Positions 22,174 through 59,033 of a DNA stretch of 64,000 nucleotides are shown one piece after another. The position numbers and the translations under genes are program-made. The DNA is from a candidate division CSSED10-310 bacterium. GTDB taxonomy: Bacteria; CSSED10-310. The stretch's first letter is position 1, and each line of letters opens with the position of its first letter. The notes under the pieces were generated by a model. That model was not told the origin of the DNA. It saw only the letters and a list, made by a program, of their open reading frames with translations, and ran no database searches. The stretch covers positions 104,175 to 168,174 of the forward strand of contig JAFGEQ010000002.1 of the NCBI GenBank assembly GCA_016931515.1. The letters are read 5' to 3'.

Positions 22174-22273
22174 GGGACGGCCTTCCTGCGATTCGGTAGT
22201 ACTACCAGAAGTACGGGTCAAGGGATGCGCTGGAGAATACTATATCCGAAACGGCTGCCATGGTCCATACGCG

Positions 22274-41910: not shown

Positions 41911-44769
41911 TTACAGCGGATCCACGCAACTGGCAGTTCCAAGAGCCGTCATGAAGATCTGTTGTGCATCACCTGCGGTGACATCCAGATCCCCGTTGCA
42001 ATCAGCGGCACATTCTTCTTCTTCGGTTGGAGTGATCAATCCCAGGGCAATCTGGAATGCCATCTGTGCATCACCCGCCGTAATATCGCCACTCAGGTTG
42101 ACATCACCATTATTGATGCATTCTTCCGGTGTGGAAGTCGGTGGGGGTGTCGGAGTGAATGTCGGTCCGGGTGTCGGAGTCGCTTCTTCACAGGGACTTT
42201 CGAAAGACACCATGACATCGTCGATGTTCCATCCACAGTAGACAACCGAGGAATCGCTAGCACCCATGACCCACCTGATCTTGACATCCGATGAGCCGGC
42301 TGCCACTGCGGAGATATTGTATTCCGCGTAAGACCAGCTGCTGGGTTGCGAACTGGATCCGGTATGATCCCAAATTGTAGTCCATGTGGAGCCGCCGTTG
42401 GCGGATACTCGCACGGAGGCATGATCCCATGTAGCACTTTCTACACCCAGCCAGTAATAATAGCTCAAAATGACTTCCGATGCCTGACTGCAGTCGATGG
42501 ACTGAGTAGTACAGAATGTCTCGGGCATATTGTTGGTATAAGAGCCGTTCAGGTTGTAGCCAACGACGTTTGAGCCGGTATAGCCGCTGGACGGATCGCC
42601 CGAGTTTCCTGTCGGGACGCCCCATGCCCACTGGTTTTCATAAGTCCAGTTCGGATTGGTATCCATGTTTGCACTGAGATAAACAACCAATTCATAGGTT
42701 TGGGCACCATAATGAGCGCCGCCGTTGTTATCGAGTGCGATATTCCCGGCCTGGTCTTCAGCCAGGACATCGAAGTAGTAGAATGTGCACGGGTCGAGAT
42801 TGTCAATGGTCATGCTGTGGCTTGTTGTCAACGCCTCATCTCTGATCTCCTCAATTGGACCGGTGCTCCAGTAGTTGATGATCGATCGCGCCATTTCATT
42901 CGTCTGCCAACTGACCGTGAACGATGTCGAATCGATATGGGTGATGCTCACGCCGCTGATCGATGGCAATTGTCCGTCTACCGTTGCGTTAACGGTTGCA
43001 TCCAGGCTGGGATACCAGACACTGATGGTTGAACCGTCCGCAACCGATATGGCTCCATCACCATGTACCGGTGAGTTCGACGTAGTCAGAAATGTCCCTT
43101 CGAACTGGCCGGTGGAAACCTCGCTCAATGTCAGGTATTCCCATGACGGTTCAACTGAACTCTGAATCTGCACATCCACTGATCCCGATGCGGTTCTATC
43201 CCGAACAGTGATGATCATCGAATCATTCGGCTGATACATTGCTTTATCCAGATAGACTCCGGCAAGTGCAGTGTAACAGGCATACGCATCGATCAGACCC
43301 CATCCCCAGACATGATTTGGAATCGTAGTTGCCGCATTGATACCCTGGCAGGTCTGGTTCCAGTACCCGGCACCGCCAGCTTGAGTATACGCGTTATCGA
43401 GAATGATCTGGCGGGTTGTATCGATATCACCGATCAAACTCGGGGCCGCCGACCAGAGTAATGCGACAACGGCGCAGGTGTGAGGTCCGGCCATTGAGGT
43501 ACCACCCCATCCACCTTCATAACCGCTACCGGGGACGCTTGAACGGACATCATAGCCGGGAGCCACGATTTCCGGTTTGATGAAGTTCGGAGCACCCGGA
43601 ATGCCACTGGCAGCCGGACCACGACTCGAACCCCAGTAAGTCCAGGACTCACTGACGATCCGGTTCTGAACATCGCTGGCGCCAGTGGTCAACACTTCTG
43701 GATAATCGCCAGGGGAGCGCAATGATTCGCAATCATCACCCTCGTTGCCGGCGGAGAATTCCATGAACACACCCGCTGCCTGCAGGGCATTGAGATCCGG
43801 GGCATATTGATAATCGCCGCCGCCAATGGGCCAACCCCAGGAATTATTGACAACATCAGGCGCCATGGCCGGAACGCCCTGTGCAGGTGTTTCGCCATAC
43901 CGATAAGGAGCCAGAAACCACTCGAAACATTCATGGAATCCCGCATCATCTTCCAGCGGACCACAGGCAATCCATTTCGCTCCCGGAGCCCCGCCTACCT
44001 GATTGCCGGCACCGTCGTCGCCAACCATCGTTCCCATGGTGTGTGTGCCATGCTCATCAGTATCGCAGGGAACCGCGCCGCAGGAGGAACCGACATCATG
44101 CCAGTTATACGCATGATCTGCCGTAGTGCCGTTCCAGCCACGGTAGTGATTTTTCAAAGCCGGATGATCCCAGTCAACACCTGTGTCAAGGTTCGCCACA
44201 ACGATTCCTTCTCCTGTCACACCTTCAGCCCACACATCCGTTATACCGATATGCGACAGGTTCCATTCCGGAGCGTTAGGCGGTGTATTTGCATCGTATG
44301 CCATCGGTTGATCGTTTTTGAATTCAAATGGATTATTCGCCCGTATCTTGGCTACATTGACATTATTGACCGCACTCAACAGCATATCCGGAGTTGCTTC
44401 ACGGACCAGAATCATATTCTGGATATAGTACTGCTGGATGCCCGGGAGAGACAGATTCAGTTCGCTGATCACCTGGGGTTGAGTTCTCTCGGCAACTTCT
44501 TTCAGCTGGTGATAAACATACTGCCCCTTATCCTTTTTGTTTCGGATACCTTTGGCACCCGACAGATCAGCCTGTTCGGACAATACTATGAACAGGCTGG
44601 ATGTTCCTTTCGACTGCATCTCCTGCAGAATCGAATCCGGAACTTTCTTAAGTGACTGGACCGCTACTTCACCACCCCAGAATTCGGGATCGGCAACAGC
44701 ACCGGCCGGCGGTACCACCGATGCCATTATTAATATCAGAAGAGAAAGTTTGAATATTTTTGTGATCAT
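41911..44769 (-). CDS. Secreted S8 subtilase (bacillopeptidase F-like) with FN3, jelly-roll and C-terminal dockerin-like domains
   Basis: Catalytic NLDTGV, HGTHTMG and GTSMAGP motifs; VVNNSWG; AAGGAGG RBS; duplicated D[VC]NxxxD[IV]TAGDAQ loops at the C-terminus. Confidence 0.92.
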   Translation of the reverse strand: MITKIFKLSLLILIMASVVPPAGAVADPEFWGGEVAVQSLKKVPDSILQEMQSKGTSSLFIVLSEQADLSGAKGIRNKKDKGQYVYHQLKEVAERTQPQVISELNLSLPGIQQYYIQNMILVREATPDMLLSAVNNVNVAKIRANNPFEFKNDQPMAYDANTPPNAPEWNLSHIGITDVWAEGVTGEGIVVANLDTGVDWDHPALKNHYRGWNGTTADHAYNWHDVGSSCGAVPCDTDEHGTHTMGTMVGDDGAGNQVGGAPGAKWIACGPLEDDAGFHECFEWFLAPYRYGETPAQGVPAMAPDVVNNSWGWPIGGGDYQYAPDLNALQAAGVFMEFSAGNEGDDCESLRSPGDYPEVLTTGASDVQNRIVSESWTYWGSSRGPAASGIPGAPNFIKPEIVAPGYDVRSSVPGSGYEGGWGGTSMAGPHTCAVVALLWSAAPSLIGDIDTTRQIILDNAYTQAGGAGYWNQTCQGINAATTIPNHVWGWGLIDAYACYTALAGVYLDKAMYQPNDSMIITVRDRTASGSVDVQIQSSVEPSWEYLTLSEVSTGQFEGTFLTTSNSPVHGDGAISVADGSTISVWYPSLDATVNATVDGQLPSISGVSITHIDSTSFTVSWQTNEMARSIINYWSTGPIEEIRDEALTTSHSMTIDNLDPCTFYYFDVLAEDQAGNIALDNNGGAHYGAQTYELVVYLSANMDTNPNWTYENQWAWGVPTGNSGDPSSGYTGSNVVGYNLNGSYTNNMPETFCTTQSIDCSQASEVILSYYYWLGVESATWDHASVRVSANGGSTWTTIWDHTGSSSQPSSWSYAEYNISAVAAGSSDVKIRWVMGASDSSVVYCGWNIDDVMVSFESPCEEATPTPGPTFTPTPPPTSTPEECINNGDVNLSGDITAGDAQMAFQIALGLITPTEEEECAADCNGDLDVTAGDAQQIFMTALGTASCVDPL

Positions 44770-44798
44770 CAGAATGAAACCTCCTTAGGTGAAAGATA

Positions 44799-44845
44799 CA
44801 AAAACAATACCAGCGGGAATGACTGCAATTCTCATTCCCGCTGGT
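44799..44845 (-). terminator. Stem-loop/terminator between the C25 and S8 protease genes
   Basis: Perfect 14-bp inverted repeat ACCAGCGGGAATGA/TCATTCCCGCTGGT with a T-rich tail on the minus strand. Confidence 0.65.
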
Positions 44846-44927
44846 CATTATCGCGAAATCGTCTTATCTGCCGGAAGACCGGATACGATCCTTCAAACAG
44901 TTGTCGTTCCCCTTAGATCGGACTCCG

Positions 44928-47900
44928 TCAGGGTTTGATATCATCAGCCACCCTCAAAATCCTGACCGGAACGAGTTGGTCACGGATGGCAGTCTCTACC
45001 GGGCCCGTGATGACCAATGTCGCCAGTGTACCGCCGACACCCTCCGGAATCACGGGGTCATAAGTGCCGTCATTGTAAGCTCCGATACGAATCCTGTCCG
45101 GAGCAGGATCATTGCAGCCGAACTGCACCCATTGAGGATTGAGATCCCCTGTGAAGCATTCGACCAGTGTGAATCGGGAATCCAGAGATAACTCGATCCA
45201 GAAAGCATCAATCTCTCTGTGATCGGTATCAAGTGTAATGGCGATTTCGATCGTGTTCTGATCAGCCTCCACATAATCAAGGGAGACAGGAATCTCGTGG
45301 TTCACAATCGGCAAGTGACTCAATCGAGGCGGGGCGTCTTTCACGCGATCCATTGGATCAGCGCAGGATGTCATACCAAGAGCTGTCATGAATATCTGCT
45401 GCGCGTCGCCTGCCGTTATTTCCCCGTTGGCATTGCAGTCCGCAGCACAGGCTTCCTCTTCGGTCGGAGTAATGACACCGAGTGCGCACATAAATGCCAT
45501 CTGGGCATCGCCGGCTGTAATTTCGCCATCGAAGTTGCAATCACCGTGATGTACGCACGGATTGCCGAAGCTGTCGGCCCAGACTTCCACGTCATCGACA
45601 TTCCATCCACAATAGACGACAGACGAATCCGTCGTTCCCATGACCCATCTCAGGTATACGGTCGGCTGATTGTCGGCCACTGCGGAAATATCATAGACCA
45701 TCGTCTGCCAGCTGGTATCGGTAAAAGAACTTCCCGAATGATCCCAGATCGTCGTCCAACTCGTTCCGTTATTGGAGACGCGGAATGAAGCGTGATCCCA
45801 CGTGCTGGATTCGACACCGAGCCATCGCATAAACCGGACTTCAACATTCTCAAGGCTGGAGCAATCGATCGCAGTCGTCGTCAGATTGGTTTCCGGCATG
45901 CTGTTCGTATAGGATCCGGACAGGTTGTACCCATAGACACTCGTACCGGTATATCCGCTTGACGGGTCACCTGACGCACCCTGCGGAACACCCCAGGCCC
46001 ACTGGCTTTCTGTCGTCCAGCCGGGATTGGTGTCCATGTTCCAATAATACCTCTGGATGAAATTCGAACCGGTGATCTCGATCTCGAACGTCAATTCCGC
46101 TTCCGCTTCGTTGGATTGAATATCCAGCGTTACTGTCACGACCGTTGGATCGGGAGTAAATCCCGCCGCCTGAATCGAGAAGTGAGGTGTGATGGATCCT
46201 CCGCTGCCACCGCCGACAATGTCGTTGAAATCCGCTTCATCATCATTGATGAACAGGTATGCGGGTGAATCGCTGTTAATCGTTCCGGTCACACCGGTGA
46301 TCCCCATTGATCCGCCGTTCAGCAGTTCGATAGCCAGTGTCGCCGTTTCGCCGGGATCCAGGATTCCGTCGTGATCGCCCCCATCCGTTATCGTGATTGT
46401 GCCAATCGACAAGTCCGGACCTGCTACCGTCTCGGTGAACGTGAATGAACCGTTGCCTGCGCTGCTGAAGTAGGTCACGGTAAATGAAATCGTCTCGCCA
46501 TTGGTTGCGGCAGCGGAGACATCGAATGCGAACGGCGTCAGGGTCTGGCCTTGACCGCCGGCGGGAATATCCGGGAACAATGCGCTGTCCTGGGTGACTG
46601 TGACATGCGGATTCGTCGTTGACAGATACCCGGTGATGCCGGTTCCGGCGATTCCCACATTCTCCACCGTCACATCTAGAAGAATGGTCTCCATTGGATT
46701 GATCATTCCGTCATTGTTTCCGGCGCTGTCGTCAATCGCGTGATCGGCATGCGTCAACACAACCTGTGGATTGTCGGACGACGCCCAAAGTTCGATATCA
46801 TCAAGATTCCAGCCGCAGTAAACAACCGAACCGTCGGTTGTTCCCATCACCCATCGCAGGTATACCGCTGCCTGCCCATCGGCGATGCCCGAGATATCAT
46901 AGCTCATCGCCTGCCAGCTCGGATCTGTGAAACTGCTGCCGGTGTGGTCCCAGATGGTGGTCCATGTCGACCCATTATTGGACACCCGGAAGGACGCGTG
47001 ATCATAACTGCTGGATTCAACACCCAGCCAGCGCATAAAACGGACTTCCACATCGGATAAATTAGCACAATTGATCGGTGTGGATGTCAGACTTGTTTCC
47101 GACATGTCGTTGGCATAGGCACCCGCTAGATTATAACCATAGACATTGGCGCCGGAAAAACCACTCGACGGATCGCCGCCGGCTCCCTGCGGGATTCCCC
47201 AAGCCCACTGACCTTCCGTAGTCCAACCCGGGTTGTCGTCCATATCCCACAACTGACGCCTTACAAAAGTCGATGTTGTGATTTCAACATCAAACGGCAG
47301 GATTTTATGATGTGCATACGCCTCGATTTCCAGATAGAACGTGACAATCATGTGATCCGGAGTGCTCTGCAGGGATGAAACCGTGAAGTGCGGATCAATG
47401 CTCGATACCGTCTGACCCGGATTCATATCCGGAAATCCCGCCCACCCTTGGTCGATGGTAATATATTCCGGATGGTTGCAGGTCAGAGTTCCAGTTATAT
47501 CCTGAGCCGCCAGGCGACCCTGATTAATCAGGGACACAGTCATTTGAACGGTCTCACCCGGATCGAAAATGCCGTCACCATCGCCACGCGTGTTCCAGTC
47601 GATGATACCGCAGGAGTCGAAACAGGCATTTGCTGCAACGATTTCCTCCATGAACATCGTCTGCGCCGTGGTTCCGCCGGCGGTCCATTCCACAACAAAC
47701 GGAACAGTATCACCATCGATGGCAGTGTCGTTCACAGAGAATTGATAGTCGGTCAGACTCGTTCCATTGCCTCCCTGAAGAATGTTTGGAAAATTCGCCG
47801 AAGGAACCGTCACAGTGACGCCGGTATAATCTGTTGAAAGAACGGCGCTGACACCCATCGCATCCAGTCCGACATTGCGTAGCGTCACCAGCATCGCGAT

Positions 47901-50900
47901 AGTCTCCAGCGGATTGATCATGCCGTCACCGTTGCCGGCACTGTCATCGATCTCGTGCGAGTGATGAAGCAGGATCGGAACGTTGCACGGCGCTGCGTAA
48001 GATATTTCCACATTGTCGATATTCCAGCCTCCCACCGAACCGGTGCTGGCAGGACCCATCGTCCAACGGATATAGACGGCCGGCTGGCCGTCGGCATATT
48101 CAGAAATATCGTATTCATAGCGGGTCCAAGCGTAATCGTAAAGATTGGAATTGGGGTTCGTGTAGATCGTATGCCAGGTGTTGCCGTCGTTGGATACGAG
48201 AATATAGGCTTCATCGTAGCCGTGTTCATCCACATCCAGCCACTGGTAAAAGCTGAATCGCACACCGAACGCGGCGGAGCAATCCAGGGCCGGTGTTGTC
48301 AGGTGGTAGGGCGTTGAACCGCCGGCGTAAGCGCCGTTGAGGTTCGTGCCGTAGACGTTCGGGCCGTCAAAACCGGAGGTCGGATCGGCTCCCGGGCCGG
48401 ACGGCTGCCCCGTCGGCTGCCCGAACTGCCAGTCTCCCCCGCTGATCGTCCAGTTGGGGTTCGTGTCCATGTTTTCCTGGAGCACATAGATGCGCACCAT
48501 TGTTGTAAACGCGTAGTTCAAGCCGCCGTTGTCATCCTCGGTCGTATTGCCGGCGCCATCGGCGGAGCGGACAAAAAGCACGTAATCCATGCACTGCTGG
48601 AGTCCGGTGATTGTCACCGAATGAGACGTCCGCAATCCCTCGACGGACGTTTCGGTATCCGGAGTCGACAAACCGTAGATAACGGTGCCCGTGCAGGGCT
48701 CGTCGGTCGTCCAGGTAATAGTCGCCGATGTATCATCGTGGAACGCGATGGTGACATTACTGATAACCGGGTATGTATCGTCCACAACCGCCGTATCGGT
48801 AACCGGGATGTTGACTCCGCCGAAACCTGTCGAAGCATCGATATAGGTTCCAGTGATCACATCATCCGGTGAAGCGTCTATATAGCCGTTTCCGGGAGCC
48901 GCCGCGCTGTCCCGGATATCGATCGATTCCTGGAAAACACCGGTATTCGGACCGGTTTCCGTCAGCAGGAGTGTTTCGGAATCACCGTTGTCGACGGTCA
49001 ATACGATGGAAATTGAATCCGCCGTATACGGATCGATGTTCAGATCAACATCCTGGACCGTGCAGACCACGGTGCCGTCCGAAGCATACGCAGGCTGATC
49101 GAAATTGAACTGCCCGCGGGTCGTAACCCGTCCAAACAGTGGGGTTTGCGGGCATCCCAACAGATTGACCTCATAGCATGTCCAGCGGTTGGCTTTGTAG
49201 TTCATGCACCAGATATTATCTTCCTTCGAATCGGCATTCATGCGTCCCAATTCCCGGATATCCTCCGTGAAAAAGGCATCGTGGAACTGGCGATGGAAGT
49301 ATTGACCCGGGCCGTCGGTGCAGCCTATTTCGCCCCAACCATAGCGACCATTCATGAAAACTGCGAACGCGCCGCCTGCATTCCAGGAGAAGTTTTCGGC
49401 GATGCAGTCAGTGGTATCGAAAGCTCCGGCGTAACAACCCTGGGAGTAAACCAGGAATGGCCGGCTGTTGGTAAGGCTTTGAACATTCGAGATACTGAGC
49501 AGCATGACCGTTGTTTCATTGGCATGACCGAGGTGATTGATCCAGTGGACATTATTGGAGTTCATTTTGGGTACCAGCTGGCTGCTGCTCCAGGATGTTT
49601 CCCGTTCATAGAGGTGATCGATGGCCCAACCGGAGGGATAACCCGGGGTGCTGTATCCCCAAAGATCCGATCCGTACCAGAGTTCATCCATATAGTCTCC
49701 ACCATAAGTCTGAGGCCACAGATATTCACCCAGCAGCAATGCATTGTCCGCCCAGTCGGCCTGATAATCATCCGTTTCGTAAGCAATTATTTTGGCAACG
49801 AAATTCCGGAGCTGCGTCGCCGAATCCACTGAGCCTCGCCCGATGAACAATTCCGCGAGGACATCGGGTTCCGTACCGCCGGGGCCGTCGTCAACTTCTC
49901 CGTAACGACTGTTGCCGTTGCTGTTCCAGTTGCCATCCAGGCATCCGAAATACATATCGGTTGGAACGGTATTGTCTTCATGACCCTCAGCAGTCGCGTA
50001 GCAGCCACGGGTCGGCACGATCGCCTGATCACCCCCGAGCAGGATGTATTCGGTATTCCAGTTTTCATATGCATCCATGCAGAAATTGCGGATTTTATCC
50101 TGGTTGTCGACACCGGTGTATTCTGCATAGATATCCTCGATCGGTTTAATGGTTCCACTGATACCACGGGTTGACTTGAAGGCAAGCAGATCCTGGAAAT
50201 TATTCGGTCCCGGGGTGTTGATCAGGGTGTTGTTTGAAATGATGACATATTGATAGACATCGCGACTCAGAAGTGATTGAGTCTGCACCGGTTCGGCCTT
50301 ATAGCACGAAGCTAATTCCGGATTCTCGACTTTTCCTGTGATCCAGTCCAAATCCGATACAAGACCCCGGCATCGGACCCGGTCGGAACGTGTGTCGGCG
50401 ACAGCGGTGTCTATGATGATATGAGCATTCCGGGCAGCCCGGAGAGTGCCTTGTGAAGGCACATAGCGAACCGGAAACACATTGAAGGTAACCAGCTGGT
50501 AACCTTTACTCCAGAAAATCCGGGGTTCCGAACAATCAACAGAAGGAAATGGAGAATCACTCCGGTAGATAACCGGATCGGGAGCCGTTATCTGCAGCGC
50601 CTGCGGCTCGCTCAACGGATAGCAATGTTGCCCTGGAGCCAATGTAACGGTACCTGGTAGATCGTACCAACCGTCAAAGATGACGGCAACATTCTGAAGA
50701 ATCTCATTTTGAGGAAGCAGGAGTGTAACCGGTCGGAACGGAACCTGTGGTTCTCCGGGATTCGCCATCAGTGGAGAATCAGGCATATTAATTTTTGTGT
50801 AAGTGACCGGGGGAGAATTCCCCTGTTGCCCGATATGCCATTCCGTCAGTGTGGGAGTGTTAAAGCTGACAGAATGTTCGATACGGGCTGCACCAAGAGG

Positions 50901-50948
50901 TGAACAGACCACAATCGGAATGATCATGAAGAATAACCAGCGATTCAT
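44928..50948 (-). CDS. Large secreted C25 (gingipain-like) cysteine protease with propeptide, FN3, three jelly-roll repeats, dockerin-like and C-terminal cohesin-like domains
   Basis: GGAGG RBS before the ATG at 50948; propeptide (NPGEPQVP); YILLGGD..VP, TDMYF, FIGR, NHLGHA (His) and YSQGCYAG (Cys); DGxINPxETI-type Ig domains; dockerin at 45351-45557. Confidence 0.9.
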   Translation of the reverse strand: MNRWLFFMIIPIVVCSPLGAARIEHSVSFNTPTLTEWHIGQQGNSPPVTYTKINMPDSPLMANPGEPQVPFRPVTLLLPQNEILQNVAVIFDGWYDLPGTVTLAPGQHCYPLSEPQALQITAPDPVIYRSDSPFPSVDCSEPRIFWSKGYQLVTFNVFPVRYVPSQGTLRAARNAHIIIDTAVADTRSDRVRCRGLVSDLDWITGKVENPELASCYKAEPVQTQSLLSRDVYQYVIISNNTLINTPGPNNFQDLLAFKSTRGISGTIKPIEDIYAEYTGVDNQDKIRNFCMDAYENWNTEYILLGGDQAIVPTRGCYATAEGHEDNTVPTDMYFGCLDGNWNSNGNSRYGEVDDGPGGTEPDVLAELFIGRGSVDSATQLRNFVAKIIAYETDDYQADWADNALLLGEYLWPQTYGGDYMDELWYGSDLWGYSTPGYPSGWAIDHLYERETSWSSSQLVPKMNSNNVHWINHLGHANETTVMLLSISNVQSLTNSRPFLVYSQGCYAGAFDTTDCIAENFSWNAGGAFAVFMNGRYGWGEIGCTDGPGQYFHRQFHDAFFTEDIRELGRMNADSKEDNIWCMNYKANRWTCYEVNLLGCPQTPLFGRVTTRGQFNFDQPAYASDGTVVCTVQDVDLNIDPYTADSISIVLTVDNGDSETLLLTETGPNTGVFQESIDIRDSAAAPGNGYIDASPDDVITGTYIDASTGFGGVNIPVTDTAVVDDTYPVISNVTIAFHDDTSATITWTTDEPCTGTVIYGLSTPDTETSVEGLRTSHSVTITGLQQCMDYVLFVRSADGAGNTTEDDNGGLNYAFTTMVRIYVLQENMDTNPNWTISGGDWQFGQPTGQPSGPGADPTSGFDGPNVYGTNLNGAYAGGSTPYHLTTPALDCSAAFGVRFSFYQWLDVDEHGYDEAYILVSNDGNTWHTIYTNPNSNLYDYAWTRYEYDISEYADGQPAVYIRWTMGPASTGSVGGWNIDNVEISYAAPCNVPILLHHSHEIDDSAGNGDGMINPLETIAMLVTLRNVGLDAMGVSAVLSTDYTGVTVTVPSANFPNILQGGNGTSLTDYQFSVNDTAIDGDTVPFVVEWTAGGTTAQTMFMEEIVAANACFDSCGIIDWNTRGDGDGIFDPGETVQMTVSLINQGRLAAQDITGTLTCNHPEYITIDQGWAGFPDMNPGQTVSSIDPHFTVSSLQSTPDHMIVTFYLEIEAYAHHKILPFDVEITTSTFVRRQLWDMDDNPGWTTEGQWAWGIPQGAGGDPSSGFSGANVYGYNLAGAYANDMSETSLTSTPINCANLSDVEVRFMRWLGVESSSYDHASFRVSNNGSTWTTIWDHTGSSFTDPSWQAMSYDISGIADGQAAVYLRWVMGTTDGSVVYCGWNLDDIELWASSDNPQVVLTHADHAIDDSAGNNDGMINPMETILLDVTVENVGIAGTGITGYLSTTNPHVTVTQDSALFPDIPAGGQGQTLTPFAFDVSAAATNGETISFTVTYFSSAGNGSFTFTETVAGPDLSIGTITITDGGDHDGILDPGETATLAIELLNGGSMGITGVTGTINSDSPAYLFINDDEADFNDIVGGGSGGSITPHFSIQAAGFTPDPTVVTVTLDIQSNEAEAELTFEIEITGSNFIQRYYWNMDTNPGWTTESQWAWGVPQGASGDPSSGYTGTSVYGYNLSGSYTNSMPETNLTTTAIDCSSLENVEVRFMRWLGVESSTWDHASFRVSNNGTSWTTIWDHSGSSFTDTSWQTMVYDISAVADNQPTVYLRWVMGTTDSSVVYCGWNVDDVEVWADSFGNPCVHHGDCNFDGEITAGDAQMAFMCALGVITPTEEEACAADCNANGEITAGDAQQIFMTALGMTSCADPMDRVKDAPPRLSHLPIVNHEIPVSLDYVEADQNTIEIAITLDTDHREIDAFWIELSLDSRFTLVECFTGDLNPQWVQFGCNDPAPDRIRIGAYNDGTYDPVIPEGVGGTLATLVITGPVETAIRDQLVPVRILRVADDIKP
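45575..48480 (-). repeat. Three intragenic copies of a ~160-aa jelly-roll domain (MD[TD]NPxWT...GDPSSG...GWNxD); a fourth copy lies in the S8 gene at about 42200-42670
   Basis: Near-identical peptide blocks such as RWLGVESS.[WY]DHASFRVSNNG..WTTIWDH.GSSFTD in copies 2 and 3. Confidence 0.85.
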
Positions 50949-51027
50949 TATATTACCTCCTCCGAGAAAAGATTGAGCGGCATTTAGGCATACCACTCCC
51001 TGAAACAATACCAGCATTCGCCATTGA

Positions 51028-51043
51028 AGCAAGGACTGTACCC
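51028..51043 (-). promoter_or_regulatory. Possible sigma-54 promoter of the large C25 gene
   Basis: Minus strand GGGTAC-AGTCC-TTGCT with correct spacing and a non-consensus first base. Confidence 0.4.
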
Positions 51044-51266
51044 GACCGTCAGAAATCGATGCTGAGCAAAAATCTGGTAGAATCTTGACAGACCATGGAG
51101 TCAGCTTTTACGGCTTGGCGGATGATGATTGCATGCTCCTGTGGAGCCGGTTTTAAAAAACGAACCTGGATATGAAGAGGAATTAAATGTACGAAGATTT
51201 ATCTGGAGATCGCATGTGAGGTCTGCAAAAAGCAATATAAAGTCAGATTCTGCCGATCGAGACTGA

Positions 51267-52310: not shown

Positions 52311-52598
52311 TCAGCAATTCCATTACTGCGTTTTAAGTGACTGAAGCGGACAATTGATCCGCTAACCACGTATGATGCCGGGCTTAACTGTCCAATGCAA
52401 GCCCTTATTCCACCGTCAAGCGCTAGATAAAGCACTGTTGATTTTTCTCTCACCTTGACTCAGGTCTATAACAAGCAGTCTTCTGATCATCATTTTTCCA
52501 GATGTTGAATCCATCACGCGTACCCTTGCCGCATACGGAATATCCTGCAATAATTATCCACAGCTGAACTCAGTGTCTAATTCGGGAGTCTCCGGCAG

Positions 52599-53591
52599 TT
52601 GAATATGATGCACACGAACAAAACAACCCTGTATTCATCCATAAGATTCTTGTCTGCGATCTCATCACTCTCTGGAACAATTGTAAGTATCCTGTTTTTT
52701 GCAATCATCACATCGAGATCGATAACATTCGCTGAATATACAGCATTTTCGGGTAATTTTTCACCATCGGGCAGTGACTCAATGAATAGCGATCCGGTTC
52801 ATTCCATCATACACTCCAAAGACGGATCCGTCATGGTCTACATTCCACCGGGACCATTTATTATGGGAAACAACAAAGGCTGGCCCGAGGAGCGTCCGGA
52901 GCATATTGTCGACCTGCCGGGATATTACATAGACCGTTTCGAAGTGACGATCGAGATGTTTCGTCGTTTTGCCGAATCACCGGATTTCACAAATCCCGAC
53001 CTCTGGCGGGAAGGTGACATACGCCGGATGATGTTTGTGGGCGAATACACGCGAAAGGACTGGTCCCTGTATGACGGATTGAGTGGAGATACGGCCATGT
53101 TTGATGTCCGGTTCCCCGAGGCCGAGGCGTACTGCCGCTGGGCCGGCAAGCTCCTGCCGACGCCGCAGCAGTGGGAAAAGGCCGCCAGAGGCACCGACGG
53201 GCGGTTGTATCCCTGGGGGCAGGAGTGGTTAGCCGGAAAATGCAATTGCCTGGAACCGGAGGCGTTTTACGGGGGAGTGAATATGTTTTCAACCTTCCCT
53301 GTCTCAGTATATGACTTCCCGGAAGGGGACAGTCCTTACGGCATAAGACAAATGGCAGGTAATGTCTGGGAATGGTGTGCCACTGGAATGCTTCCCTATC
53401 CTGGAAACGATAAACCTTACAAGTTTTACTCCACATTCTGGGGTGTATTCCAACCTGAAATCCGCGGTGGCTGCTGGGTGCTGGACCCCCGATTCTGCAC
53501 AGCGACGTTCCGTTCATTTGCTGACCCTGGAACCCGTGAAAAAACCTATGGATTCAGATGCGCATGTGAAATGGATGAGCTCGATTACTGA
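52599..53591 (+). CDS. Formylglycine-generating-enzyme (SUMF1/FGE-sulfatase) domain protein
   Basis: MVYIPPGPFIMG, EVT, AEAYCRWAGK.LPT..QWEKAARG, YPWG, MAGNVWEWC, RGGCW and GFRC motifs. Start uncertain. Confidence 0.9.
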   Translation: MNMMHTNKTTLYSSIRFLSAISSLSGTIVSILFFAIITSRSITFAEYTAFSGNFSPSGSDSMNSDPVHSIIHSKDGSVMVYIPPGPFIMGNNKGWPEERPEHIVDLPGYYIDRFEVTIEMFRRFAESPDFTNPDLWREGDIRRMMFVGEYTRKDWSLYDGLSGDTAMFDVRFPEAEAYCRWAGKLLPTPQQWEKAARGTDGRLYPWGQEWLAGKCNCLEPEAFYGGVNMFSTFPVSVYDFPEGDSPYGIRQMAGNVWEWCATGMLPYPGNDKPYKFYSTFWGVFQPEIRGGCWVLDPRFCTATFRSFADPGTREKTYGFRCACEMDELDY

Positions 53592-53644
53592 CAGGGTTGC
53601 CGAACCAGATCAATTGAAATTTCCCGCCTCTTTCAGGGTGACGA

Positions 53645-54730
53645 ATGAGTAACTTGCATTGCAGCAAATCGGACCATTATACGGCTAATAATAATACCGG
53701 AATATTCTCCATGAGTATCACAAAAAAATGCATGTTCTCAATTATTTCAATCGGATTATTGCTCATTACGGGTGAATCGATTCTCTATTTTTTCGGTTTT
53801 AGTTTTCAACCGTTGACTCATCCGGGCGAATTTGGAGATCATTTCGAAGCCACTAATACCGATGATTATGTTCAGGATCCGACGCGATTCTGGATCCCGA
53901 AACCCGATTCGATCATGCATGCCGATTGGGTCGGAGACCAGGGTGCAGTCATTAATGAACTCGGCTTTCGGGGACCGCTTCCGGATGTGGAAAAACCATC
54001 TGGAGTTATCCGTGTGTTGTGTTTGGGGGACAGCGGAACTTTTGGATGGGCCATGAATGATGATGAAACGTATCCCGTTCACCTGGAGATGTTATTAAAT
54101 GAATGGGCGGAGACTCATTCGTCGGGGATCCGTTTTGAGGTCATCAACGCCGGAATAAACGGATACTCCACATTTCAGGCGATCGAACAATATAAAGTCC
54201 TTGAACACCGTCTGCAGCCGGACATAGTGACTCTGGCTGCCGGGCGCAACGACCTATCACCCGTTCCTATGACGGACGCATCGCGTCCCGTCATTAAACC
54301 TTGGCAAATTGCTGTGACGAAGATCATTGCGCGAACGAGAACCGGCCAGTTGATCATGTGGTTCAGCCAGCATAAGGCGGCTGCCGTTTCGGTGCACGCA
54401 TTGGATCCACAGAAACATCAGACGATCCGGGTCAGCGATTCGGAATACCCGGTGTTATGGTCCCATCTGGCCAGTGACTGCAAGGCACACAACCGACAAC
54501 TGGTATATATCCATCGGGCCGGACGATTACCGGTCATCCGGTCTCTTAAAAATCAATTTGATATCACCGTTGTCGATTTCGAGCGTCTGCGATCGATCGG
54601 ACAAGTCTTCGAATTCACGGAGGGTGGTCATCCGGATACCCCGGTTTACCGGTTAATCGCAGAGGAAATTTTTATACAAATGAAAACCAGCGGAATGCTG
54701 AGACGTTGGAGTGCTACAAATGAACTATAG
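53645..54730 (+). CDS. SGNH/GDSL hydrolase with an N-terminal membrane anchor
   Basis: INELGFRG, LCLGDSGTFG, INAGINGYST, GRND and GGHP motifs. Confidence 0.85.
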   Translation: MSNLHCSKSDHYTANNNTGIFSMSITKKCMFSIISIGLLLITGESILYFFGFSFQPLTHPGEFGDHFEATNTDDYVQDPTRFWIPKPDSIMHADWVGDQGAVINELGFRGPLPDVEKPSGVIRVLCLGDSGTFGWAMNDDETYPVHLEMLLNEWAETHSSGIRFEVINAGINGYSTFQAIEQYKVLEHRLQPDIVTLAAGRNDLSPVPMTDASRPVIKPWQIAVTKIIARTRTGQLIMWFSQHKAAAVSVHALDPQKHQTIRVSDSEYPVLWSHLASDCKAHNRQLVYIHRAGRLPVIRSLKNQFDITVVDFERLRSIGQVFEFTEGGHPDTPVYRLIAEEIFIQMKTSGMLRRWSATNEL

Positions 54731-54824
54731 CACCGTCGTTGCATTCGATTTATAAACAGCGTGGCATTCAGGCTAATCTATCGCAATACATTCAAAATTC
54801 TACCGAGAACATCAATGATTGCTT

Positions 54825-55547
54825 CTACTTATCAAGACCGTACCAGTTGCCTCCGGTGAAATCGCCCATAAAAATGTTCCGATCTTCCTCACCGGCGATT
54901 TGTTTTCCAAGTTTTTCCGCCAATTTTCGGTGTTTCAGGGCCTCATCCCTTCTGCCCGCAAGGGCATTCGCCCGAGCCATTGCTTCTTGCGCGTAAGCCC
55001 GATCGAAATCCTGCATCAGATCATGGTATTGATCTGTCAGGGCCATACACCGGGAGGCGTGACGCAACGCTTCAGCGGCCATCCCAAGATCGGTGTAAAC
55101 CCGTGCGATCAGCCACTCGCCCCGCTGATGATTCACGCCGGTTCCTACTTTCAGCCAGTGATAGCACGAGCCGTGAGCGGCATAGATCATACGCTCGTTT
55201 TCGGCATCAGAGCGATCAGGTTTCTGCAACAAACCCCACACCTCATTATTCAACTCGATCGCAAAATACTGGTGCGCATCGTTTTTCTTTTTTGCCTGTT
55301 CATCATTCATCTTTGATATCTCCTTCTCCGGTTGTTCCCGAATTACCTCTGAATCAGGTTCCGATGCCATTTCCTTACTCGTTTCCGGAGTCCTGGCACC
55401 GATTTCCAGTATGGAATCCTTACTCCCCGATTTCTGATCGGCGGTTTGTGAAGAACCTGCCGGATCGTCTGCCTGAACTACGATTGAATTCGGCAGTACC
55501 ATCCATAGACAAACAGTAATCGCCCAAATCAGTTTCATGGCTTTCAT
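54825..55547 (-). CDS. Secreted helical hypothetical protein
   Basis: Signal peptide, acidic linker, and a helical domain FAIELNNEVW..AAHGSCYHW..RGEWLIARVY..AYAQEAMARA. Confidence 0.65.
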   Translation of the reverse strand: MKAMKLIWAITVCLWMVLPNSIVVQADDPAGSSQTADQKSGSKDSILEIGARTPETSKEMASEPDSEVIREQPEKEISKMNDEQAKKKNDAHQYFAIELNNEVWGLLQKPDRSDAENERMIYAAHGSCYHWLKVGTGVNHQRGEWLIARVYTDLGMAAEALRHASRCMALTDQYHDLMQDFDRAYAQEAMARANALAGRRDEALKHRKLAEKLGKQIAGEEDRNIFMGDFTGGNWYGLDK

Positions 55548-55639
55548 CCTTCCCGGGTTTACACATAACTCGTTGATACGAACACTATTTATTCCACCAT
55601 GAGTCATGCGAAAAAATCAAATGTTTCAGCTTTATCTGG

Positions 55640-55677
55640 AAAAAAAGAGAACGTCCAGGCAATCAACCCGGACGTTC
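55640..55677 (-). terminator. Rho-independent terminator of the second C25 gene
   Basis: GAACGTCC...GGACGTTC hairpin followed by a T-tract on the minus strand. Confidence 0.65.
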
Positions 55678-55701
55678 GATACATCTCAATAATCAGTCTG
55701 T

Positions 55702-58700
55702 CTATAAAGGATCAGCGCATGATCCCAATCCCAGCGCTGCCAGGAATATGCTTTGCGCATCACCGGCAGTCACATCCTCATCCGCGTTGCAGTCCGCCGC
55801 ACACCATTCCGGATCCGATGGAACATACGTCCCCAGCGCAATCTGAAATGCCATCTGAGCATCTCCTGCCGTGATCTCGCCATTCAAGTTAACATCGCCG
55901 CTGTTAATGCATGGATCCGGTGTCGCAGTCGGTTCGGAACATGGAGCGGAGGAGAAAATTACCACATCATCGATATATGAACCCCGATAGTCATTGATCA
56001 TGCCGTCGACAGAATTGAAATTGAATTTAAGATAAATGTTGTGCCCGACATAATCATTCATATCCAGAACATATTCCTGCCAGCCGCCTGAATTCCCTTC
56101 AACCGTCAGCAGATTGATCACGGACTGCCCCTGAACCTGGATCTGGATGGTCAGAATATCGTAACCGCCATATTCTTCACCTTCATGCCAATACCAGACG
56201 TGATATTCCGCATCGGTGATCGCTGTCAGATCAATAAGTTCCGATGTCAGTGTACCCTCGGTCGTCCCCACATCGTAATTGCATTGCGGTTCCTGGCCGT
56301 AATACCAGCTGCTCACTCCGGAATGATTCTCAGGGCAGCTCCCCGATGCATTCGTGTGATGCCACAAACCGCTGTGCGTCCAGGCTCCCGGTCCCGACTC
56401 CATATCATCGCTGAAATACACAACCTGTTCCCAGGTGACAAAGGAATAATTATCGCCGCCGTTGTCCTCGATGGTCGTATTCCCGGCGATATCCGTCGAC
56501 TGCACGTAGAACACATATTCCGTGCAATCCAGCAATCCCGTCAATGAAATGACATGATCTGTTGTCTTTACACTGGACGACACTTCCTCGGTCGGAAAAT
56601 CTGTCCCGTAGAATACAACGCTGTCGGATTCCTCATCCGTCACCCAGTGGATAACGGCCTGGCTATAGCTGACTCCGGTCACTTCCACATTGTTTATCTG
56701 AGGAGGTACGCCATCGATAACCGCGGTGGCAGTGACTTCGATGTTGACGCCGCCATGCCCGTCATCTTCATCGATGTACACCGCCTGGATCTGGTTCCCG
56801 TGCTGGACTTCCAGAATACCATTGCCAACGACGGCAGATCCCTCCGAAATCGTTACCGTATCCTGGAAAACAAACGTGGAATTCCCGGTTTCCGTTAAAA
56901 CGAATGTTTCCGTATCGCCGTTATCGGAACTGAGAGTCACCGGAACGGTGTCCGGTCCTCCCGGATTCTCATCCAGATCGAGATCCCGCACTGTGACGAC
57001 CGCAAACGAATCCGGCTGATATTGCGCCATATCAAACATGATGGTTCCATCGCTGGACAACGCAAAGTCCATTCCAAGATCCGGGTTCCCATACAGCGTC
57101 CATTCACACATTTCCAGCTCCGTATAGTCCCATCCGTTCATCTGGTATACCTGGGTCAACCCATTCTGCATCGATTCACCCTGCGTCATACCGCCGGACA
57201 TGACCCCGCTGGAGAAAAAATAATCCAGCGACTGGCTGGAACCGTCGGACGGTCCGCTCCACCCCGGACACCCATATGCCACCCTCGTGGATCCTACAAA
57301 CCCGACCGCGCCCTGCTCGATCATGCGCGCGCCGATGCTGATTTCCGACGTTTCGCTGTTGCTGCATGCATCCGCAAAAATTATCGCAGGATAATTGTCG
57401 TCGAGTAACGGACAGATCGATGTGTCGACAAACGGCTGTGACGGATACAGCTCATAACATGCCGTTGCTGATCCGTGGCCGGCCCAGTTCACAAACGCAA
57501 AGGTATTGCTTGTCCAGACACTCTGCACGTTTGAATAACTGGCGTTGTAATCGCAGGAATAGCTGCTCTGCGGAACCTCATACATCCGCGTCATGGTCCA
57601 GTCTTCCATTCCGGGCTGATCCACCTTCGCTTCCATGAGTACCGCGTTGTCCGTATCATCCCAGAAGAATGTCCCGATCAGCAGGACATTTTTCTTGAAC
57701 GACGGGTCATCCGTCATTTCATACGCAATCGTTTTTTCCACGACATGCTGCACCGTCGATGGTGTACTCCATGGAATCCGGCCCACGTTTACCTCGGAAT
57801 AAAAATCGCACGAATCGCCGGAACCCAGATACACCTGGTTGCTGTTGGCGTCCCAGGACTGGTTGTCCGGCAGTGACAGCTCGGCAAAATAGAAATCCGT
57901 ATCCGGATCATCGGAAATATGACGCATGGGAACATTGGCCATAGCACCCACAAGGCATACATCCTCAATACCCCATTCCGCGGATGGATATTTTTCTCTC
58001 AGGAAATTACGCATCTTCTGGGCCAGGTCAACACCCGGGTAGGTCGAATTGATCCATTCCGTTGTCACCGAAGTGGCTGTCCGGCCCTTGATGATTTCCC
58101 AATCAACAAGGTCTGCTGCAACCGTCTGCAGGGCGCTTGTTGTGATCAACACGTATTCGTAAAGACCCCTGCTTCCGGGATTCGACGGATACCAGGCCTG
58201 AGCCTGATCATAGTTCAGTATCAGCGACTGGGCTCTCTGCTCCATTCTCGGCTGATTATCGATCATCGCCGGCTGGCTGCTCACGGGCATCCGGTAATGG
58301 ACGTCAAGCGTGATATCGGGATAATAGACCAATGTCCCGGAAACAGGCCGGTATTGATACGGGCTGACCCTGATGTCCACAATATTGTATTTCCGGAAAC
58401 CGCCGGACCGGACATATTCGGCTATCGCAGCCGGATAAAGATCATCGGAACCATATACCGCTCTCTGATTGTCCTCAAAAAGACGGGACTCCTTCGAATC
58501 AGACCGTACATCGCCTGTTTCGATCGTCCGCGGTGCAGGTGCAGGCGGAATGTCGATACCGTCCAGTTCCTGCGGTGTTCCGGTACGGACACTCAGTGAC
58601 TCGTAAACCGCTCCGGGAGGTATCGCGACGGCGTAAATCCGCGCCGGCAGTCGCGGGCATCCGGGCTCCCTTAAATACCCATATCCTGAGATCGAAACCT

Positions 58701-58845
58701 CATCGCCTCCGTCCTGCTCCAGCATATTGTCCATCAAGACAGGTACGGTAACCGATATCCTGCCCGATTCTCCCCGAACCGTTCCGGGAATAAGACCAAG
58801 CATGAATATAAAACCTAACAATCCTATCGCGATTTTATGTCTCAT
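55702..58845 (-). CDS. Secreted C25 (gingipain-like) cysteine protease with FN3, jelly-roll and C-terminal dockerin-like domains
   Basis: GGAGG RBS before the ATG at 58845; propeptide (EPGCPRLP); TDFYF, VNVGRIP, NWAGHGS (His), FADACSN (Cys) and LYGNP motifs; duplicated TAGDAQ loops. Confidence 0.9.
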   Translation of the reverse strand: MRHKIAIGLLGFIFMLGLIPGTVRGESGRISVTVPVLMDNMLEQDGGDEVSISGYGYLREPGCPRLPARIYAVAIPPGAVYESLSVRTGTPQELDGIDIPPAPAPRTIETGDVRSDSKESRLFEDNQRAVYGSDDLYPAAIAEYVRSGGFRKYNIVDIRVSPYQYRPVSGTLVYYPDITLDVHYRMPVSSQPAMIDNQPRMEQRAQSLILNYDQAQAWYPSNPGSRGLYEYVLITTSALQTVAADLVDWEIIKGRTATSVTTEWINSTYPGVDLAQKMRNFLREKYPSAEWGIEDVCLVGAMANVPMRHISDDPDTDFYFAELSLPDNQSWDANSNQVYLGSGDSCDFYSEVNVGRIPWSTPSTVQHVVEKTIAYEMTDDPSFKKNVLLIGTFFWDDTDNAVLMEAKVDQPGMEDWTMTRMYEVPQSSYSCDYNASYSNVQSVWTSNTFAFVNWAGHGSATACYELYPSQPFVDTSICPLLDDNYPAIIFADACSNSETSEISIGARMIEQGAVGFVGSTRVAYGCPGWSGPSDGSSQSLDYFFSSGVMSGGMTQGESMQNGLTQVYQMNGWDYTELEMCEWTLYGNPDLGMDFALSSDGTIMFDMAQYQPDSFAVVTVRDLDLDENPGGPDTVPVTLSSDNGDTETFVLTETGNSTFVFQDTVTISEGSAVVGNGILEVQHGNQIQAVYIDEDDGHGGVNIEVTATAVIDGVPPQINNVEVTGVSYSQAVIHWVTDEESDSVVFYGTDFPTEEVSSSVKTTDHVISLTGLLDCTEYVFYVQSTDIAGNTTIEDNGGDNYSFVTWEQVVYFSDDMESGPGAWTHSGLWHHTNASGSCPENHSGVSSWYYGQEPQCNYDVGTTEGTLTSELIDLTAITDAEYHVWYWHEGEEYGGYDILTIQIQVQGQSVINLLTVEGNSGGWQEYVLDMNDYVGHNIYLKFNFNSVDGMINDYRGSYIDDVVIFSSAPCSEPTATPDPCINSGDVNLNGEITAGDAQMAFQIALGTYVPSDPEWCAADCNADEDVTAGDAQSIFLAALGLGSCADPL

Positions 58846-58877
58846 AAGATACCTCCATTTCCAATAATAAACGAGAA

Positions 58878-58894
58878 GGCAAATATGTTGCCAA
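58878..58894 (-). promoter_or_regulatory. Sigma-54 -24/-12 promoter
   Basis: Minus strand T-TGGCAA-CATAT-TTGCC, about 33 bp upstream of the ATG at 58845. It is also palindromic (GGCAA-N5-TTGCC). Confidence 0.6.
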
Positions 58895-59033
58895 ATACTC
58901 ATTATTGAGATTTTTATCTGGTTTAATCTGTGGATCGCGGCGAGGGAAAGCACTTTGTGCAGATTATATTTTATCACTTAACAACCGCACACAATTTTTA
59001 AGGAGGAGGTGGAGTATCTGTCAAGTCTTTCAG

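Follow-up and report, generated by a model that had tools for sequence, protein, structure and literature searches.

Dockerin-bearing peptidases and their candidate cohesin partners in a candidate division CSSED10-310 bacterium: a probable protein-digesting counterpart of the cellulosome

Why three secreted peptidases encoded in one region of a candidate division CSSED10-310 genome should share the same small cysteine-rich module is the question raised by a stretch of 64,000 nucleotides (hereafter, the window; assembly GCA_016931515.1, contig JAFGEQ010000002.1, positions 104,175 to 168,174 of the forward strand). The window belongs to contig 9 of a 2.57-Mb, 24-contig assembly that is 90% complete. 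An earlier interpretation made from the DNA letters alone (the sequence-only reading) had taken the module for a dockerin, and had placed its bearers, one S8 subtilase and two C25 (gingipain-like) peptidases, in a surface protein-degrading complex built on cohesin scaffolds. We found that the module is a dockerin and that the same genome encodes cohesins, some of them strung together on a scaffoldin, and we consider it likely, judging from sequences and structural models, that the window peptidases are tethered through cohesin-dockerin contacts. The three genes and the modules concerned are listed here; positions are those of the window unless they are preceded by a contig number (C) or by a genome and a contig number, G000 being the genome of the window.

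41911..44769, reverse strand: gene for the secreted S8 subtilase, 952 residues (translation and Pfam)
41914..42123, reverse strand: its C-terminal four-cysteine dockerin, residues 883-952 (Dockerin_1, 27.6 bits)
44928..51032, reverse strand: gene for the large C25 (gingipain-like) peptidase, reading frame of 2034 residues, likely start Met29 at nucleotide 50948
45351..45560, reverse strand: its internal four-cysteine dockerin, residues 1825-1894 (Dockerin_1, 30.1 bits)
44931..45260, reverse strand: its C-terminal cohesin-like module, residues ~1925-2034 (profile of the genome's own cohesins)
55702..58977, reverse strand: gene for the second C25 peptidase, reading frame of 1091 residues, likely start Met45 at nucleotide 58845, where the sequence-only reading had placed the end of the region
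55705..55914, reverse strand: its four-cysteine dockerin, residues 1022-1091 (Dockerin_1, 25.1 bits)

The three reading frames lie where they had been described, and the module of about 70 residues in each scores above the Dockerin_1 cut-off of 22.9 bits in 3 of 3 cases. Taking the S8 module as reference, identity is 70% for the module of the large C25 enzyme and 73% for that of the second C25 enzyme. When a profile was made of 12 of the genome's modules, these three included, it scored each of them with E values of 1e-36 to 5e-39 (1.4e-36 for the module of the large C25 enzyme and 1.9e-37 for that of the second), a similarity far beyond chance. The loops DxNxxGxxTAGD and DCNxxxxxTAGD make up two 12-residue Asp/Asn calcium-loop segments, with a helix after each. 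When 20 modules of the genome were combined into a profile and compared with solved structures, the match was to the Xyn10B dockerin of Clostridium thermocellum (2ccl_B, E 7e-5; 1ohz_B, E 6.6e-4); the alignment runs in register, with the Asp/Asn loop positions kept and Ala-Gly standing opposite Ser-Thr. A dockerin fold was also predicted by AlphaFold2 (AF2), with a predicted local distance difference test score (pLDDT) of 97.4 and helices at residues 16-26, 34-40 and 50-60. Foldseek placed this model next to 4uyq_B (template modelling score, TM, 0.79; root-mean-square deviation 1.5 Å) and 2ccl_B (TM 0.77; 1.3 Å). Ranks 1-33 of that search were all solved dockerins, and EF-hand proteins followed from rank 34 with TM below 0.3. 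By family score, duplicated loop-helix segments and fold, the module is a real, type-I-like dockerin.

The motif given in the sequence-only reading is correct in the alignment, with Ala-Gly at loop positions 10/11 in six of six loops and four cysteines in three of three modules. The four cysteines are kept in 19 of 20 modules of the genome, and in 130 of 131 full-length global representatives, which were ranked by a profile containing the cysteines, so that Cys-bearing modules are favoured. Among 30 more distant modules, 20 have all four, nine have none and a single one has one, an all-or-none pattern that fits either two co-dependent disulfides or one metal site. Any disulfide pairs would probably be Cys2-Cys66, a clasp joining the termini, and Cys38-Cys42, an assignment taken only from the pseudo-symmetry of the modelled fold. 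Loop positions 1, 9, 10, 12, 13, 14 and 17 are the same in both halves in 116-131 of the 131 representatives. This agreement at the putative recognition positions would fit the proposal that the three enzymes share one specificity and bind in a symmetric dual mode, although the dual mode itself is only a possible one. Elsewhere in the genome, a cysteine-free dockerin of a second type lies at the end of a 394-residue protein (G000:C4:29167-30348, reverse strand; Pfam 26.4 bits) and is missed by the four-cysteine profile. The genome may hold a second cohesin-dockerin specificity.

Searching the genome with Dockerin_1 gave 21 matches, 20 of them over the cut-off, and the four-cysteine profile gave 22 at E<=1e-5. 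The Pfam model Cohesin gave eight matches at E<=1, five of them over the cut-off, so the genome is not cohesin-free, and profiles of the genome's own modules recovered 11 cohesin modules in seven proteins. The scaffold that had been postulated was found among them.

G000:C3:324600-327815: scaffoldin, 1072 residues, with a signal sequence, five cohesins, Pro/Thr linkers and a 121-residue C-terminal domain, the last at G000:C3:324600-324977
G000:C7:4356-5240: small cohesin protein, 295 residues, with one cohesin, a PT linker and a sorting-like C-terminal tail
190-residue protein with a single cohesin
S8 peptidase with a long PT linker into a cohesin, cut off by the contig end
G000:C16:59544-61916 (locus L162): secretin with a C-terminal cohesin (36.7 bits) and N-terminal tetratricopeptide repeats (TPRs)
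Two C25 enzymes with a dockerin followed by a cohesin, one of them the window's large C25 peptidase

At E<=1e-3 the scaffoldin matched only Cohesin and, weakly and below the cut-off, PCSK9_C3; no carbohydrate-binding module (CBM) was seen in it. Its type of cohesin is rich in cysteine: in 32 sequences C100 and C103 are invariant, and C13 is present in at least 90%. The cohesin-bearing secretin is one of three secretins in the genome and lies directly downstream of genes for a TPR protein, a zf-HC2 anti-sigma factor and an ECF sigma factor. The reading frame C4:34753-35334 was considered as a further cohesin and not counted; it reached only 16.4 bits with Pfam, was missed by the genome's own cohesin profile and sat on a very long branch.

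In the large C25 peptidase about 140 residues follow the dockerin, and they hold the cohesin-like module, whose coordinates the sequence-only reading had not listed. It was matched, at an independent E value of 9.8e-12, by a profile that had been made without this module from the remaining cohesins of the genome, several of them above the Pfam cut-off. This terminal subtype ends about 10 residues short of the C-terminal end of the profile, in the window module and in 20 of 20 modules from relatives. In a tree of cohesins, the window module pairs with that of the other tandem C25 enzyme (support 86/93, on long branches). In the relatives, a four-cysteine dockerin lies directly upstream in the same frame at all 20 loci, with 0-5 residues left between the end of the cohesin and the stop; these loci come from five sister genomes, 12 having been picked for an adjacent dockerin match and eight only for a match short of the profile end. 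The two modules are separated by about 20-30 residues. The tandem is a conserved architecture, and it points to adaptor enzymes that could dock onto one partner while presenting a socket to another. A complex prediction for the terminal cohesin of the large C25 enzyme, two calcium ions and the dockerin of the S8 enzyme gave scores of 0.32, 0.25 and 0.26 against a mark of 0.32, which speaks neither for nor against binding.

The products of the three genes are multidomain endopeptidases exported by the Sec route: an S8 subtilase and two gingipain-like C25 enzymes that have propeptides. The S8 enzyme runs from a signal peptide through the S8 domain, fibronectin type III (Fn3) domain and a beta-sandwich resembling MAM or 'choice-of-anchor J' domains to a PT linker and the dockerin. 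In the large C25 enzyme, a propeptide, the C25 domain, Fn3, and three MAM-like modules with beta-rich repeats between them precede the dockerin and the cohesin; the second has a propeptide, C25 domain, Fn3-like domain, MAM-like module and dockerin. All parts lie on the reverse strand.

43297-44214: S8 catalytic domain (Peptidase_S8, E 7e-37, profile positions 1-288 of 288)
42742-42960: Fn3 of the S8 enzyme (Pfam fn3)
42205-42666: MAM-like beta-sandwich of the S8 enzyme (weak InhA-like_MAM; NCBIfam choice_anch_J 25.2 bits, below the cut-off of 30)
50409-50798: propeptide of the large C25 enzyme (weak Propeptide_C25, 19.6 bits, below the cut-off of 22)
49143-50249: its catalytic domain (Peptidase_C25, E 1.3e-55)
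48540-48764: its Fn3
48000-48470, 46785-47243 and 45579-46037: its three MAM-like modules
58204-58701: propeptide of the second C25 enzyme (Propeptide_C25, 38.2 bits)
57076-58155: its C25 domain (Peptidase_C25, E 2e-33)
56491-56691: its Fn3-like domain
55954-56403: its MAM-like module

The dyad columns GH and C are invariant in five of five dockerin-bearing C25 domains of the genome. A profile of these five sequences matched gingipain R (1cvr_A) at E 7.5e-56, with the dyad columns aligned to 'GHGS' and 'ACVNG'; the five-sequence profile was needed, as no single C25 domain matched the Protein Data Bank (PDB) by phmmer at E<=1. In the S8 protein, the Asp/His/Ser triad motifs of the family can be read in the translation as DTG, HGTH and GTSMAGP. 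The His-Cys dyad and the N-terminal propeptide mark the C25 enzymes as members of their family, as do the family model and the triad motifs for the S8 enzyme, and both kinds of enzyme are likely to be active.

On the preferred reading, in which the peptidases are tethered by cohesins, the dockerins would, after export, plug calcium-dependently into cohesins, and sets of peptidases mixed with other surface proteins would in this way be kept in one place on the cell surface or close by, so that particulate or detrital protein is broken down in the immediate vicinity of the cell. The sockets would be offered by the five-cohesin scaffoldin, the small cohesin protein, the truncated S8 peptidase, the secretin and the two C25 enzymes. 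These tandem enzymes would act as adaptors, each plugging in and offering a further socket, for example to the S8 enzyme, whose gene sits directly downstream of that for the large C25 peptidase.

The cargo was scanned in 20 dockerin carriers of the genome, two short fragments on contig 20 being left out. Ten of them are peptidases (five C25, two S8, and one each of C13, M14 and M12A, the last an astacin), which makes peptidases the largest recognisable cargo class. The other ten comprise two beta-helix proteins, an FGE-sulfatase-like protein, proteins with LTD, FG-GAP, DUF7901 and PKD domains, one with Amidase_3 and Golvesin_C, a CBM56-like protein and a reading frame of 110 residues with the dockerin only. 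The CBM56-like match (protein 1 of locus L030) is weak; AhpC/Redoxin matches at residues 2-92 of its stop-to-stop frame may lie before the true start. No glycoside hydrolase family was detected in the 20 carriers (E<=1e-3 for 17, E<=0.01 for the three window proteins), and the earlier statement that the window holds no glycoside hydrolases agrees with our scan, which found none in 39 other reading frames (E<=1e-5) or in the three peptidases (E<=0.01). The surface protein-degrading complex put forward in the sequence-only reading is largely right in type and partly supported, by dockerins, cohesins, a scaffoldin and a peptidase share of 10 in 20, but 'proteolytic complex' covers only part of a mixed cargo. 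An FGE-sulfatase-like protein of the genome has the four-cysteine dockerin at its N-terminus (G000:C3:362302-363522, reverse strand), and the window itself encodes an FGE-sulfatase-like (SUMF1-type) protein without a dockerin (52599-53588, forward strand). A second cluster of peptidase and cohesin genes is found at locus L163 (G000:C7:779-10415), with, in a row, a Cleaved_Adhesin and MAM protein ending in an 'IPATGPxG' tail, the small single-cohesin protein listed above, a 772-residue C1 peptidase and an S8-dockerin peptidase.

The cohesin-dockerin system occurs in all six genomes of the family. The four-cysteine dockerin was found in 5/5 other family genomes (32-70 matches each), 3/4 further genomes of the order and 3/4 further genomes of the phylum, which has 14 species genomes in the collection, and in none of 27 genomes of other phyla. 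Cohesins are present in 10/10 genomes of the order, and reading frames with several cohesins in 7/9 other genomes. In larger genomes of the phylum the four-cysteine dockerin is also found within giant frames (dockerin at G010:C34:37154-37366, in an open frame of 12092 residues; dockerin at G004:C26:14080-14286, in one of 5762 residues).

Among 1.84 billion representative proteins, the dockerin profile matched 7173 with E<=1e-3; 824 of these reached E<=1e-10, and 46 reached E<=1e-30. Of the best 150 representatives, 131 have one full-length module, located C-terminally in 109, N-terminally in seven and internally in 15. Among such proteins, 102 have 250 residues or more; families were scanned in 79 of them, namely the best-ranked within the size limit, some of which are this genome's own. 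Peptidases account for ten of the 79 (three S8, two C25, two M28, and one each of astacin, C1 and M14); there are also two Porphyromonas-type peptidylarginine deiminases, seven beta-helix, three Kelch, three FG-GAP and two FGE-sulfatase-like proteins, six with other single families, two with Dockerin_1 only, and 44 without a family at E<=1e-8. No glycoside hydrolase appeared among these 79. In a protein atlas, Dockerin_1 accompanies C25 in 76% of the 238 members of one cluster and 61% of the 66 members of another.

How the sockets themselves are held at the surface leads to the ends of the cohesin proteins. In the 90%-complete genome there was no match to a type IX secretion system (T9SS) tail (Por_Secre_tail, E<=0.01), PEP-CTERM, a sortase or PorV; the search for SprA was uninformative, its control matching nowhere. 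The C25 enzymes do not end in the T9SS C-terminal sorting domain of the Porphyromonas gingipains. At the C-terminus of the small cohesin protein, after its PT linker, stand 'IPATGPxG', a hydrophobic helix and Arg/Lys; the same tail, likewise preceded by PT linkers, recurs in five other reading frames.

C3:19848-22820: reading frame with an 'IPATGPxG' tail
C7:2-598: the same
C7:779-4105: the same
C13:168896-171184: the same
C13:310071-311471: the same

With one exosortase-family gene in the genome (G000:C9:12232-12651, 43.8 bits), the tail may be an undescribed exosortase-type sorting signal. The scaffoldin ends differently. Its C-terminal domain of about 120 residues is shared by 52 of the genome's reading frames and forms the extreme terminus of 50 (a profile gave 57 matches), usually after a PT linker; four frames with the domain lie in the window.

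589-1710, reverse strand: reading frame with the ~120-residue C-terminal domain
20923-22221, reverse strand: the same
59037-60299, reverse strand: the same
63410-64000, forward strand: the same, running off the window

When 22 members of this domain were compared with Pfam and NCBIfam (E<=1), no family was matched by more than one of them. It was modelled as a beta-sandwich (pLDDT 91.9) with only generic structural neighbours (Foldseek TM<=0.5; best Z in a wide structural search 8.5, to Ig-like domains), and no T9SS tail appeared in the structural lists, which does not exclude one. Every one of the 10 genomes of the order has the domain, as does one further member of the phylum, with copy numbers from 57 to at least 107; none of 30 other genomes has it, and three members of the phylum lack it. 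Forty proteins with the domain were scanned, and at least six of them are peptidases, from families also seen among the dockerin cargo. It has the look of a sorting or anchoring domain peculiar to this lineage, and it and the dockerin look like two alternative tags, the scaffoldin using the ~120-residue domain.

The breadth of this cargo also suggests another function: a general system for surface display or adhesion, possibly directed against other cells (attachment, predation or attack on necromass), with the dockerin as the anchor of the lineage and peptidases as one cargo among others. The non-peptidase half of the genome's own carriers (10/20), which includes a peptidoglycan amidase (Amidase_3) and FG-GAP, LTD, PKD and beta-helix proteins, would be expected of such a system, as would the share of peptidases (10/79) among the global representatives, with their seven beta-helix, three Kelch and three FG-GAP proteins and two peptidylarginine deiminases, and the recurrence of the same cargo classes with the ~120-residue C-terminal domain. 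Dockerin-rich giant proteins of Omnitrophota have likewise been read as attachment or predation devices, in the available part of that preprint (bioRxiv 10.1101/2023.11.21.568195). However, peptidases remain the biggest recognisable catalytic class, and a five-cohesin scaffoldin together with cohesins borne by enzymes suggests the co-assembly of several enzymes and not anchoring alone. No predation-specific genes were seen, although none were looked for. We regard display or adhesion as the principal role as an unlikely explanation.

An extension of the tethering reading holds that the tandem C25 enzymes chain onto one another and onto the scaffoldin as branched, self-extending surface protease polymers, whose disulfide-locked partners would survive their own proteases, with the scaffoldin exported and held by its ~120-residue sorting domain. 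This bolder form we put forward as speculative and improbable; if it were true, the ~120-residue domain would imply a new secretion or attachment pathway.

The tandem invites a third interpretation, in which the dockerin and cohesin of one enzyme bind each other in cis or head to tail, for latency or storage, or in which the cohesin of the secretin reads the dockerin as a signal for export or handover; the modules would then serve control and not scaffolding. The same-frame dockerin before the terminal cohesin at 20/20 loci of relatives and in both cases of this genome suits the first form, and the cohesin at the end of one of three secretins, within a group of ECF-sigma, anti-sigma and TPR genes, suits the second. 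Most dockerin proteins, however, have no cohesin of their own, and a separate five-cohesin scaffoldin is present and conserved in relatives. Nor are the C-terminal domains of secretins known to face the path of the substrate. A control function of this kind seems distinctly unlikely.

Least probable of all, and very unlikely in our judgement, is that the module is only a structural cap stabilised by calcium or another metal, or a tail that binds carbohydrate, and has no cohesin partner. Dockerin-like modules are reportedly widespread without known partners, and the all-or-none cysteines would fit a single metal site as well as two disulfides. Against this, cohesins and the module occur together: of the 10 genomes of the order, all have cohesins and eight have the four-cysteine module at E<=1e-5. 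The faces of the helices that bind cohesin in solved complexes are also the most conserved and symmetric part of the module.

Several points weigh against tethering of the window peptidases by cohesins. Pfam Cohesin misses the terminal module of the large C25 enzyme (at E<=0.01, and at E<=1 in the genome search). The dockerin and cohesin profiles were built from the same lineage, and the counts in relatives are not independent of them. Peptidases make up only half of the genome's own cargo and 10/79 of the global representatives, 44 of which have no family at E<=1e-8; weak Chondroitinase_B and CBM56-like matches, as well as the beta-helix proteins, may be carbohydrate-active, so that 'protein-degrading' may be too narrow a term. 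At least six peptidases carry the ~120-residue domain instead of a dockerin, and docking is therefore not the only route for the peptidases of the cell. Finally, these large proteins would have to cross the outer membrane and the scaffoldin would have to be retained, and the C-terminal domain of the latter has no family and only a generic beta-sandwich fold.

Systems of a related kind have been proposed before. For Ca. Stygibacter (Cloacimonadota), Williams et al. (2021) proposed, from genome inference only, a cellulosome-like complex with dockerins on GH18, GH57, S8 and C25 enzymes and a 3755-residue scaffoldin with a C-terminal domain (PMC8542988). In the available text of that report, the likeness to the present system lies in signal-peptide S8 and gingipain-like C25 peptidases with C-terminal dockerins in an uncultured anaerobe. 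The differences, to the same extent, are that neither a glycoside hydrolase nor a CBM-bearing scaffoldin was found here among the scanned parts, in contrast to the GH18/GH57 cargo and the CBM2/CBM3 scaffoldin there, that the dockerin and the scaffoldin cohesins here are rich in cysteine and two C25 enzymes carry their own cohesin, and that the C-terminal domain of the scaffoldin matches no T9SS tail model.

The 'planctosome' of Nemodlikiaceae (Planctomycetes), in which tethering of M12B and M14 peptidases was proposed by Andrei et al. (2019), resembles the present system, as described in the accessible portion of that work (PMC6461901), in the non-cellulosomal tethering of peptidases, the diderm cell, the degradation of polypeptides, a dockerin-plus-cohesin adaptor and an LTD protein. 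It differs in having single cohesins on anchor and adaptor, with neither a multi-cohesin scaffoldin nor C25 or S8 enzymes mentioned there, and it is much smaller than the 22 dockerins here or the 32-70 in sister genomes. The mucinolysome of Limousia, as far as its published account is available (PMC12997984), is also a cellulosome-like assembly for a substrate other than cellulose with dockerin peptidases among its cargo; unlike the present system it comes from Firmicutes, uses a sortase anchor and has glycoside hydrolases as its dominant cargo, with peptidases in the minority (3-6 per genome).

With the clostridial type I pair (C. thermocellum Xyn10B, PDB 1OHZ/2CCL) the dockerin shares its length, two 12-residue Asp/Asn loops with helices, two-fold symmetry and fold, and the genome as a whole shares a scaffoldin with tandem cohesins and Pro/Thr linkers. 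Unlike that system, it has a diderm host (secretins), no glycoside hydrolases, Ala-Gly instead of Ser-Thr and four invariant cysteines, and no sortase was found, S-layer-homology anchors not having been searched for. A multi-cohesin scaffoldin and dockerin enzymes, two hallmarks of the cellulosome, are present; with no dockerin-bearing glycoside hydrolase and no cellulose-binding module on the scaffoldin, the assembly would work like a cellulosome but is not one. The gingipains of P. gingivalis (RgpB, PDB 1CVR) share with the C25 enzymes the catalytic domain with its His/Cys dyad and the N-terminal propeptide. The T9SS cargo of P. gingivalis is paralleled by C25 and M14 peptidases, by the Porphyromonas-type peptidylarginine deiminases of the global representatives, by a Cleaved_Adhesin protein elsewhere in the genome and by a putative C-terminal surface-retention tag, which here is the dockerin or the unrelated ~120-residue domain and not a T9SS domain. 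The present data give no sign of a pathogen, and the DNA is best represented in a sediment metagenome.

The sequence-only reading named no earlier cohesin-dockerin assembly built from gingipain-like enzymes with this cysteine-rich dockerin. As regards the principle, that claim of novelty is too strong, as S8 and C25 peptidases with dockerins on a scaffoldin are already in print (in the available text of PMC8542988); the novelty lies in subtype and architecture. Our search of the literature found no description of a bacterial dockerin subtype with four invariant cysteines, which the supplements of PMC8542988 and PMC6461901 could nevertheless show, of peptidase-rich, hydrolase-free cargo on a multi-cohesin scaffoldin, or of a conserved dockerin-cohesin tandem on C25 enzymes. 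What is new here are these three features and the uncatalogued C-terminal domain of the scaffoldin and about 50 other proteins.

Around the three genes, the second C25 gene is adjoined by a peptidase gene without a dockerin, followed by two further genes; a GatD/GatE-like pair lies elsewhere in the window.

59037..60299, reverse strand: C1 (papain-like) peptidase (Peptidase_C1, E 4.4e-44), the C-terminus of which weakly matches the ~120-residue C-terminal domain of the scaffoldin (phmmer E 7.8e-4)
60383-61552, reverse strand: radical SAM/SPASM maturase-like gene, adjoining the C1 peptidase gene together with the next
61704-63080, reverse strand: unannotated reading frame of 459 residues
13428-14819, forward strand: gene with GatD-like features (Asparaginase and GatD_N)
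14865-16826, reverse strand: gene with GatE-like features (GatB_N with a long insertion, and GatB_Yqey)

A GatD/GatE pair is typical of archaea; in other respects this genome is a bacterial one and has sigma-54 activators, TonB_C, ComEC and secretins. Of the stretch 41911-59000, 24 short pieces (DNA only) were recovered from a soil-metagenome run that belongs to another study than the likely source, 17 of them at least 99% alike; this organism, or one almost identical to it, therefore lives in a second sample as well. No RNA data set was among those listed as containing the DNA, and two metatranscriptome runs of the study that is the likely source, mapped onto 41911-59000, gave no usable cover.

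The published 'proteolysome'-type proposals all rest on genome inference. The system described here offers a compact and internally consistent candidate, with one dockerin type, a five-cohesin scaffoldin, adaptor enzymes and 32-70 dockerin matches in each sister genome of the family. The 70-residue dockerin and the cohesins of about 130 residues are small and well defined, and the idea is therefore directly testable in vitro; where designer enzyme assemblies call for an affinity pair that withstands proteases, the presumably disulfide-rich pair could be of use too. The ~120-residue C-terminal domain, which is uncatalogued, may be the sign of a sorting route not yet known. The turnover of carbon and nitrogen in sediments has the breakdown of protein outside cells as one of its major steps, and the question that this candidate system addresses is by what means uncultured bacteria hold expensive secreted peptidases, and the peptides set free by them, near the cell: the cell probably assembles a protein-digesting counterpart of the cellulosome.

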